NCBI RefSeq assembly: GCF_028641065.1
Contig: NC_073378.1
Span: forward strand, 83,142,001-83,206,000
Source: Leucoraja erinacea
Lineage: Eukaryota
Length of the DNA stretch: 64,000 nt
Direction: 5' to 3'
Part shown: piece by piece, positions 54,240 through 56,589 of the stretch
How the letters are laid out: every line of letters starts with the position of its first letter
Numbering within the stretch: position 1 is the first letter of the stretch
The notes under the pieces: generated by a model
The model's database searches: none
What the model saw: only the letters and a program-made list of their open reading frames with translations
What the model was told of the DNA's origin: nothing
Position numbers and translations under genes: made by a program

Positions 54240-54656
54240 CAGGCATGGGCGGAAATCCTGGGGGAGTGGGGGATGGGGGGGACAACCCCCCCATGTTTAG
54301 TAATCCAGACTTTATCAGATGCTTTCTAAGGACTGAATCGGCCCGTTCGCAGGACATTTCAGGACCTTTCGCCCGGCGCTGCTTAAAGTCAAACTGCTGC
54401 ATCGAGGCGATCGAGGCTATTGAGGCTCCCGATGTTGAAGCCCTCGCCGGCTGATGAAAGACCCCGCAAACAGGCCGATTCAAGCCCCACGATTCTGGGC
54501 AGACGAAGCTGCTGTTGCTGGAGTTTGGAGTTGGTCACCAACCAGGTCAGCCTCCAATGTTACCGTCCTCAGGGCCCACGGCCGAAGCCTCGCGTGTGTG
54601 CGCGGCCACCAAGAAATTGTGTCCCCGCCATGTTTTGATAGCAATTTCCGTGCCTG
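54240..54656. mobile_element. Non-autonomous DNA element nested in CR1
   Basis: Imperfect TIRs caggcatgggcggaaat / atttccgtgcctg; interrupts ggtgt|gcctcaggg; no clear TSD. Confidence 0.6.
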
Positions 54657-55163
54657 GCCTCAGGGTTCGGTGCTTGGCCCATTACTGTTTGTCATCTACA
54701 TTAATGATTTGGATGAGAACATACAGGGCAAGATTAGCAAGTTTGCTGATTATAAAAAAAGTGAATGGTTTTGCAGATAGTGAAGATGGTTGTGAAAGAT
54801 TGCAGCAGGATCTGGATCGATTGGCCAGGTGGGCTGAGGAATGGTGGATGGAATTTAATGCAGAGAAATGTGAAGGTGTCGCATTTTGGGATGTCTAACA
54901 AGGGCAGGATCTATACAGTGATAGGTCGGCCTCTGGGTAGTACTGTAGAGCAGAGGGATCTAGGAGTGCAAGTGCATAGTTCCTTGAAGCTTGAGTCGCA
55001 GGTAGATAAGGTGGTGAAAAAGACTTTTGGCACTTTGGCCTTCGTCAGTCAGAGTATTTAGTATAGAAGTTGGGAGGTCATGTTGCAGTTGTATAATACA
55101 TTGGTGAGACTTCATTTAGAATATTGTGTTCAGTTCTGGGCACCATGTTATAGGAAAGATATT

Positions 55164-55308
55164 CTTCTTCTTCTTCATCTTTCGTGTGGCGTGCACAGCC
55201 TAAAGTTGTAGGACAAATTGTTCTATTTGATCTTCTGTTTGTGCACGTCGAGTTGATTGCATTAGTCGAAACAGTGCGGACCACGTGAAGGTTGCAATCT
55301 TCCACCCC
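55164..55308 (-). mobile_element. 145-bp non-autonomous retroposon with (GAA)n tail
   Basis: 14-bp TSD ataggaaag[a/g]tatt (55150-55163, 55309-55322) in the CR1 host. Confidence 0.9.
55255..55308 (-). ncRNA. Minimal HDV-like self-cleaving ribozyme (predicted)
   Basis: P1 GGGGUGG/CCGCACU, P2 GAUUGCA/UGCAAUC, P3 ACC/GGU, L3 UUCACGU, P1.1 G, minimal P4 U(UUCG)A, J4/2 CUAA. Confidence 0.8.
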
Positions 55309-56589
55309 ATAGGAAAGGTATTGTCGAGCTTGAAAGGGTTCAGAGAAGATTTACAAGGATGTTGCCAGGACTAGATTGTGCAAGCTATAGGGAGAGGTTG
55401 AGTAGGCTGGGTCTCTATTCCTTGGAGTGCAGGAGATTGAGGGGTGTGCTTATAGAGGTGTATAAAATCATGAGAGAAATAGATCGGATGGATGCACAGA
55501 ATCTCTGTCCTAGTGTAGGGGAATTGAAGACCAGAGGACATTGGTTCAAGGTGAAGGGGAAAAGGTTTAATTGGAATCTGAGGGGAAACTATTTCACACA
55601 CCGGGTGGTGGGTGTATGGAACAAGCTGCCAGAGGAGGTAGTTGAGGCTGGGACTATCCCAATGTTTAAGGAAACCTTTATACAGGTACTTGGATAGGAC
55701 AGGTTTGGAGGGATATGGACCAAGCACAGGCCGGTGGGACTAATGTAGCTGGGATATGTTGCCCGCTGTTCGGCAAGTTAGACCGAAGGGCCTGTGTCCA
55801 CACCGTATTACTTTATGACTTTATAACTATGTGTGTCCTTAATTCAATCACCTTACTGTTGATTTGTGTCTCTTCAATTTGCTCCATTCTATTTCTGTTG
55901 ATCTATGGCCTTGGGAATAACCCGGTTGTTAATCTCTTTGAAATCCTATCTTTCAGTTTCTTTCCTCGGTCCCTAAAATCTGTGTAGGACCTCATCTCTC
56001 CATCCACCCATGTTGTTGGAACCAATATGAAGCTTGCAATCTTGCTCTTTGCACACTTATTTCAAGATGCTCTGCAGGTATTCAGTGATATCCTCGATAT
56101 TAATGGACACAAAGATATTGAATTCATAATTTGCCATTGGGAAATTATTAGGCAAAGTTTGGTGGCACTGTTTCTCTTCCTAAGGGAGTAGTAGTATAAA
56201 TATGTACACATCACAACATTAAAGCAACCCAACAAGGGATGGAACACTTTGTTGCAACTCCAGCAGTTACATAAACATTAAGTATTACTAAATTGTAAAC
56301 ATGGGGCATTCTGAACAATGAGAAAAATTAAATACAAATGAATAAGGCAGGAGACATTTACTCTGCTGTTCACAAGCTCAGTATTATCGCTCTCAAGGTT
56401 GATATTATTAAACATATACTGAACATTGTACCAGAAGTATATTTAAAAGCTGGAATTTATCAGATTTAATTTTGTGCCACATAGGTAATATAAAGAAAGG
56501 TAATGATAAATTAGCAAGAATCTGACTAAGATCCATGTGATGGTCTATTAACGCACTTCATAATTATCCCTCGATAGGTGTGATTAATA

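Follow-up and report, generated by a model that had tools for sequence, protein, structure and literature searches.

A predicted P4-less, HDV-like ribozyme at the head of bipartite, Vingi-like retroposons in the genome of Leucoraja erinacea

A short minus-strand insert in the window, as we call the whole 64,000-nucleotide stretch of Leucoraja erinacea DNA analysed for the current report (contig NC_073378.1, positions 83,142,001 to 83,206,000), belongs to a dispersed family that we interpret as an internally deleted, non-coding form of a Vingi-like LINE. A P4-less ribozyme predicted at the 5' end of the element likely cuts its RNA just before the first G (G1), and the RNA is likely copied by the APE-RT protein of the LINE. 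We put the probability of this reading at roughly 0.8. It draws on the ends that the element and the LINE have in common, the copy number of the family, target-site duplications (TSDs) that abut G1, pairing maintained across families and RNA ends that lie at G1.

The window copy, its predicted ribozyme and its family

The features of the window copy are collected in Table 1. The initial annotation had described a 145-bp minus-strand insert with a GAA tail, bounded by a 14-bp TSD with one mismatch, and re-derivation of the coordinates gave the same result. It had also named the interrupted host a CR1 copy. That the host is an RT-bearing LINE holds, since a single RT-like frame continues from one side of the insert to the other and a weak match to Pfam RVT_1 (E 4.6e-4) lies upstream of it; that this LINE is of the CR1 type is our assumption.

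Exactly one HDV-like parse was found in the 64-kb window with a nested double pseudoknot descriptor that allows one mismatch in P1, and it reproduces, element by element, the HDV/CPEB3 order of stems first proposed for the head of the insert, including the P1 mismatch and the catalytic C. A strict descriptor, with no P1 mismatch allowed, matched nowhere in the window; it misses the window copy because of the mismatch at 55275. As to the chance level, none of 3000 dinucleotide shuffles of the element gave a parse, and six shuffles of the whole window gave 0.17 matches per 64 kb when one P1 mismatch was allowed. The expectation that P1 would be restored in other copies was borne out (C at position 34 in 60 of 65), and intact copies give a strict parse of the nested double pseudoknot (P1 of 7 bp, P2, P3 of 3 bp and P1.1). 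The CPEB3 ribozyme is reported to be sensitive to mutation in P1 (PMC9901934), and the window copy, with its private mismatch in that stem, is therefore probably weak or impaired. An Rfam search of the window copy returned no ribozyme and only two chance matches. An intact copy scored 16 bits against the HDV family model RF02682, which includes P4, and so fell short of its gathering cut-off of 44 (E 0.77), with match borders at exactly the 54 nt of the predicted ribozyme; the focal head had no match to the CPEB3 model (RF00622) at E 10.

Table 1. Features of the insert and its surroundings (window positions)
Feature	Positions	Strand	Basis or remark
Whole non-autonomous element	55164..55308	-	145 bp with tail; younger subfamily B
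(GAA)n tail	55164..55183	-	sequence inspection
TSD abutting G1	55309..55322	+	14 bp, 1 mismatch to partner copy
TSD beyond tail	55150..55163	+	14 bp, 1 mismatch
Host: decayed RT-bearing LINE interrupted by the insert	54601..55550 (borders approximate)	+	RT-like frame and weak Pfam match
Predicted P4-less HDV/CPEB3-like ribozyme	55255..55308	-	descriptor scan; first 54 nt of element
Ribozyme P1 (predicted)	55308-55302 / 55279-55273	-	descriptor parse
Ribozyme J1/2 (predicted)	55301-55300	-	descriptor parse
Ribozyme P2 (predicted)	55299-55293 / 55261-55255	-	descriptor parse
Ribozyme P3 (predicted)	55292-55290 / 55282-55280	-	descriptor parse
Ribozyme L3 (predicted)	55289-55283	-	descriptor parse
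Ribozyme P1.1 (predicted)	C55287-G55272	-	descriptor parse
Ribozyme mini-P4 (predicted)	55271-55266	-	descriptor parse
Ribozyme J4/2 (predicted)	55265-55262	-	descriptor parse
Predicted catalytic C, position 44	55265	-	C in 59/65 copies, 13/13 of subfamily B
Private C>A breaking P1 pair 4-34	55275	-	C in 60/65 other copies
Homology to 5' end of family-1 Vingi-like LINE (positions 1-79)	55230..55308	-	72/80 columns identical to copy L157
Element-specific junction (positions 80-97)	55212..55229	-	not found in four LINE copies
Homology to LINE 3' end (last codons, stop, 3' UTR)	55172..55216	-	41/45 identical to copy L063
5' arm of predicted end-to-end stem (positions 62-69)	55240..55247	-	pairing and folding
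3' arm of predicted end-to-end stem (positions 112-119)	55190..55197	-	pairing and folding

A first look at the genome (2.19 Gb) yielded 2174 candidate members of the family, and a 22-mer specific to the element has 4838 exact genome matches (control, 0), a lower bound on the number of copies; by our estimate, a divergence of ~4% points to some 10,000. All of the 30 best-scoring copies begin their alignment at the position of G1. They are selected by score, and for that reason the first 70 matches to the 22-mer in position order were used instead: 59 start at positions 1-3, six at positions 4-11 and five later. Exact TSDs of 6-13 bp ending at the base before G1 flank 38 of 65 near-full-length copies, versus 4 of 65 in a swapped-flank control. 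When both copy sets are pooled, 61 of 79 copies beginning with GG have an exact TSD of at least 7 bp, which abuts G1 in 49, leaves one extra base in eight (T in three, A in three, G in two) and more than one in four. The expectation that other copies would start at G1, the predicted cleavage site, was also borne out. The base just before G1 is most commonly T (26 of 57, from the 70 ordered copies).

Two subfamilies can be distinguished. Subfamily A (46 of 65 copies) mostly has CGAA in J4/2 and a median non-CpG divergence of 4.1%; subfamily B (13 of 65), which contains the window copy, has CTAA there and a median of 2.5%. The differences sit in J1/2, in the second base of J4/2 and in a U-A/U.G exchange in P1. 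Conservation within the family was dropped as a sign of selection, since the copies decay neutrally. With its TSDs, simple-repeat tail and many copies, the family shows the marks of independent spread by target-primed reverse transcription (TPRT). Four of the copies (L031, L038, L040 and L041) are split by later insertions of other repeats, with 500-700 bp separating head from tail, and L039 and L052 represent minor short variants in which a longer part of the LINE 5' UTR, with its T4 run, has been retained, probably through separate deletion events. In 20 sequencing runs (12 studies; eight organisms and one metagenome) 90-100% of sampled words of the element are present, and the element is therefore common to several species.

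Ends shared with a Vingi-like LINE and pairing across its sister families

The relationship between the element and its putative parent was traced with a tail pattern designed not to match the letters upstream of the tail in the element itself. This pattern had 45 matches, and among the 30 examined there were two LINE ends, one of them with a long coding stretch. A walk from there in the 5' direction drew on 673 candidates for the 3' end, 89 for the middle and 35 for the 5' end of the LINE. The head of the element also stands at the start of two full-length copies flanked by TSDs, L124 (~2.8 kb between the TSDs) and L157 (which carries an insertion). What the LINE has in common with the element is ~79 nt at its start, with the P4-less ribozyme, and ~45 nt at its end, which correspond to positions 1-79 and 93-137 of the element. 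The ribozyme motif occurs in 17 of 30 LINE 5'-UTR loci; many loci are without the first few bases or inverted. Copies whose ribozyme head is inverted against the body (5' inversions) are numerous among the LINEs (L121, L125, L201, L214 and L221-L225). The segment between the two shared ends had no convincing match in four LINE copies; it looks as if it had been produced by a short duplication together with the inverted copying of the 3' segment. In intact copies it forms a hairpin of 7 bp, in which the window copy has a G>T change at 55217.

The two ends held in common with an autonomous LINE, together with the lack of an ORF, are those of a bipartite non-autonomous LINE, or SIDE. The suggestion that this is a SINE-like family with no tRNA head is accordingly kept in part: ARAGORN reports 0 tRNA genes and Rfam no tRNA match in the element, and the head is the 5' end of the parent LINE itself rather than a borrowed one, which supports an internally deleted LINE over a SINE with a borrowed head. 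A tRNA-derived SINE was ruled out on the same two grounds. Independent bipartite copies of family 2, described below, and of an older family also exist (L207:1512-1790 and L212:1512-1800; ~265-300 bp, with TSDs); the first ~46 nt of L212 are, by eye, very close to the CPEB3 consensus, and its J4/2 and P2 are decayed.

We refer to the parent LINE as family 1. The family-1 copies examined are broken, and none has an intact ORF, but the family (~2.8 kb) is collinear with a younger Vingi-like LINE of ~3.1 kb, family 2, the coding pieces of which match Exo_endo_phos_2 and RVT_1 (APE then RT). The 346-aa C-terminal part of family 2 has no domain match, and nothing in it is RNase H-like. Its relatives are single proteins, mostly of 800-1000 residues, an Anolis protein being 51% identical; family 1 is only 36-38% identical to this family 2/Anolis group. 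Vingi elements are described as compact, with a single ORF, APE then RT, and no RNase H (PMC13708176), a plan that the parent LINE matches, family 1 doing so by way of the collinear family 2. The head of family 2 resembles, by eye, the 5' end printed for Vingi-2_Gav (PMC5786205, supplement). We therefore describe the parent as Vingi-like, on the strength of its structure and of this likeness of heads; the name Vingi is carried by none of the protein database matches, and an RT tree built without named Vingi, Ingi or RTE references, which was poorly resolved, with saturated outgroups and family 1 on a long branch, was set aside as support. As regards the partner first expected, an RTE or Vingi/Ingi element with a GAA tail, a LINE sharing both ends was found and is Vingi-like, which made an RTE partner unnecessary.

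It is possible, although we consider it doubtful, that the younger subfamily B, including the window copy, switched to the younger family-2 LINE as its partner. Both tail changes of B go towards the family-2 tail, and none of seven family-1 LINE ends with the first change also has the second; median non-CpG divergences (4.1% for A and 2.5% for B, against 5.3% for family-1 5' ends and 1.3% for family 2) would fit such a switch. On the other side, just two positions are involved, the 3' end of B is identical to family 1 at 41 of 45 positions, and the top-scoring family-1 3' ends are young too (3.1%), the LINE samples being biased by score.

A genome search with the Rfam CPEB3 model (RF00622) scored 59 candidates, 48 of them above the cut-off; the best score in the sister families was 64.9 bits against a cut-off of 35. 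Of the 30 matches retrieved (L197-L226), 19 stand at the start of family-2 elements and 11 at the start of members of older families, in which adjacent Vingi-like coding pieces were detected by tblastn for eight of the 11. A search for 3' ends downstream of these older heads found none; several were inverted upstream instead.

Covariation of the stems between families, proposed at the outset as a check, was examined in 11 hand-picked natural copies, which are related to each other and include one row that is off by one base. In this set, 94.4% of cells are paired, as compared with 39-52% in slid controls, and both partners have changed in 11 of the 18 pairs. The covariation score was 0.637, versus 0.211 +/- 0.032 for shuffled alignments; three of five measures exceeded all 500 shuffles, and two failed to beat them (44 and 249 of 500), figures that are not probabilities, since the rows are related. 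Compensatory changes occur across families in P1, P2 and P3, as illustrated by the P2 strands of family 1 (GATTGCA/TGCAATC), family 2 (GGTAGAA/TTCTACC) and family 3 (AGAAGGA/TCCTTCT). The pair at position 1 is G.U in 10 of 11 rows and G-C in one, and G1.U, L3, the single P1.1 pair and C-N-A-A are largely kept across families, with P4 ranging from 6 to about 30 nt.

RNA 5' ends and a possible mode of spread

Indications of where the RNA begins were drawn from four raw-read runs (X21 and X22, single-cell; X23, bulk; and X24), 1-5% of each run being read and aligned to copy L025; the runs come from one organism, which may not be the species of this genome. Loose ends that precede G1 occur in 1228 reads of X21 and 1077 reads of X22, and their consensus is a 30-nt template-switch oligo (agreement 0.68 and 0.63) identified in a resource table (PMC11239685). 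The agreement values imply that the oligo would be borne by roughly half of the loose-end reads. In the bulk run X23 there is no oligo before G1, only flank. The loose-end consensus of X24 has a partial resemblance (agreement 0.40) to another oligo.

In the junction consensus of X21 and X22 the oligo lies directly on G1, with no extra G. Such junctions are reported to have no extra base for uncapped RNA and one for capped RNA, and uncapped ends that start with G are reported to switch most readily (PMC6885630), so that the capture of ends of this kind is favoured. Strand invasion by the oligo at the GGGG run was ruled out: the loose part ends in three G beyond the four of the element, which indicates the end of a template rather than invasion. 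The RNA 5' ends lie at the predicted cut site, G1, but RNA that begins with a triphosphate at G1 or with a cap at G2 would give the same picture. Sense reads exceed antisense reads ~3-fold across the head. The change G25A is found in 2.8-3.0% of sense and 5.3-5.8% of antisense reads, and a few loci dominate among the rows listed. Poly(A) loose ends at the tail in X21 and X22 were set aside, because oligo-dT can prime on the A-rich tail.

These ends might also arise if the head were mainly an internal promoter (Pol II or Pol III) starting at G1 or G2, with an inherited ribozyme that may work but is not the source of most 5' ends. This is the main rival to our interpretation, and we regard it as unlikely. 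Template switching cannot separate a 5'-OH from a triphosphate, and the main form of the element is without the T4 run found just downstream in the LINE 5' UTR, an absence that Pol III would need; moreover, GTTTCGA in the mini-P4 is B box-like, with two mismatches to the consensus. Pr77 of the related L1Tc/ingi group is both promoter and ribozyme (PMC4035085). However, there is no tRNA-like head, and the A-box-like match (by eye) is a poor one that lies just some 23 nt away from the B-like motif. Few genomic junctions have an extra G (2 of 61), the oligo junction consensus has none, and the fold, G1.U and the catalytic C are kept across families.

We find it very improbable that the fold is a relic, i.e., that it worked in an ancestral LINE and was killed by the shrinkage of P4, the elements being full length merely because 145 nt are easily reverse-transcribed. 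It is true that truncation is rare in short elements, that P4 is at most a single pair and that decay after insertion is neutral, so that conservation within the family proves nothing. Nevertheless, ribozymes without P4 have activity in other settings (PMC10879173), this minimal head was carried by the autonomous parent as it spread, and the RNA ends at G1 would still want a cause.

Under the preferred reading, that of a self-cleaving, internally deleted LINE, a copy in a transcribed region would be read through by host transcription, and the predicted ribozyme would likely cut the RNA just before G1. The freed RNA would then likely be taken up by the LINE protein, which may recognize a stem joining the two ends of the element together with the GAA tail. 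Primed at a nick by target-primed reverse transcription at that tail, the RNA would be copied by the endonuclease-reverse transcriptase of the LINE to leave TSDs mostly of 9-13 bp.

The stem invoked here is predicted from complementarity between a 30-nt stretch that follows the ribozyme and a 32-nt stretch that precedes the tail, its 5' arm starting 4-7 nt past the ribozyme. Each copy was compared with 5000 shuffles, in windows chosen after the match was seen. Family-1 copies form stems of 10 bp (L171; reached by 0 shuffles), 8 bp (L025; 10), 7 bp (L157; 111) and, in the decayed L124, 5 bp (2065). Family-2 copies, with unrelated letters, form 9 bp (L228; 1), 9 bp (L232; 0) and 6 bp (L227; 181), and these carry most of the weight, since the core of the family-1 stem is palindromic and the windows are post hoc. 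A family-3 copy (L214) has, by eye, a 9-bp stem that includes one G.U pair. The stem is also predicted by folding, at a modest z of -1.4 to -2.2 for the 3' domain; folding energy alone is unremarkable (z +0.44 for the whole element). A stem that joins the post-ribozyme and pre-tail sequences would explain why both ends of the LINE have been retained.

Relation to the CPEB3 ribozyme and to known ribozyme-headed elements

The mammalian CPEB3 ribozyme (RF00622) resembles the focal head in topology, in its 7-nt L3, in the single-pair P1.1 and in the 2-nt J1/2; it differs in being a single intronic locus with a full P4, and the two differ in all P3 and most P2 letters. The 5' end printed for Vingi-2_Gav of the gharial shares, by eye, 52 of the 54 letters of the Rfam CPEB3 consensus that lie beyond the interior of P4 (PMC5786205, supplement). 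This identity includes the letters of P2 and P3, which vary freely between families, and thus points to descent rather than constraint. The mammalian CPEB3 ribozyme likely arose from a Vingi element, the direction from element to gene being suggested by the wide spread of the element. In the same supplement, the body of the alligator SINE2-1_AMi also shares, by eye, the P4 stem and ends in a family-2-like tail. In a wider reading, which we hold to be reasonably probable, Vingi LINEs may share an RNA design in which a CPEB3-type ribozyme at nt 1 precedes a short arm pairing to the pre-tail sequence, so that the two ends of the RNA are joined. The focal family would be the smallest version of this design that processes itself, and the mammalian CPEB3 ribozyme would be the domesticated 5' end of a Vingi element of this type.

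Our literature search found no paper naming both CPEB3 and Vingi. Among the texts on the CPEB3 ribozyme, for which a link with memory has been reported (PMC10919898), the terms 'transpos' and 'origin' do not occur in the accessible part of an evolution study (PMC8233481), and term searches of the accessible parts of PMC5753468, PMC8782182, PMC10919898 and a 2026 preprint found no such link.

Ribozyme-headed deletion derivatives are already known as a kind. The R2 SIDEs and R2/R1 SIDEs of Drosophila likewise combine a 5' HDV-like ribozyme with a LINE 3' end, are non-autonomous and spread by TPRT, but these are specific to rDNA, use R2 or R1 proteins and have a long ribozyme (PMC3414825), whereas the focal elements are dispersed, number in the thousands, derive from a Vingi-like parent and have a head of 54 nt. 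NARTc, RIME and SIDER of trypanosomatids are ribozyme-headed deletion derivatives of L1Tc/ingi; L1Tc itself has an RNase H and a 77-nt head of proven promoter activity (PMC4035085), in contrast to the focal system, which lacks both RNase H and P4 and resides in an animal. Bipartite non-autonomous Vingi elements, in which 5' and 3' parts are joined by internal deletion, have also been described (PMC5786205). The minimal P4-less HDV-like and theta ribozymes share with the focal one a P4 that is a short loop and a catalytic C that is first in J4/2, but they are reported to come to about 99% from gut phages, and to lie beside tRNAs (PMC10879173), whereas the focal one heads an animal retroposon. 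SINEs with HDV-like ribozymes are mentioned in a review (PMC6765202).

In the literature on Vingi, non-autonomous elements and HDV-like ribozymes with SINE (Repbase, Dfam and patents lay outside the search), we found neither a Vingi ribozyme nor the focal family. The literature searched likewise yielded no P4-less ribozyme in an animal retroposon, no end-to-end stem such as is seen here in three families, and no Vingi origin of the mammalian CPEB3 ribozyme. For RNA gene writing, Vingi-1 is employed as a tool whose donor carries both UTRs (PMC13708176). Of the six ribozyme passages in the accessible text of that review, four deal with R2, one describes an HDV ribozyme in a template for R2 and one belongs to an abbreviation list; none concerns Vingi.

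If the interpretation given here is true, Vingi joins the LINE clades that bear ribozymes, and the P4-less HDV-like ribozymes gain a place and a function in an animal genome, where their natural variants number in the thousands and their RNA ends can be mapped. It also offers a testable origin for the CPEB3 ribozyme, and a self-cleaving head combined with an end-to-end stem would bear on the design of Vingi-1 donors.
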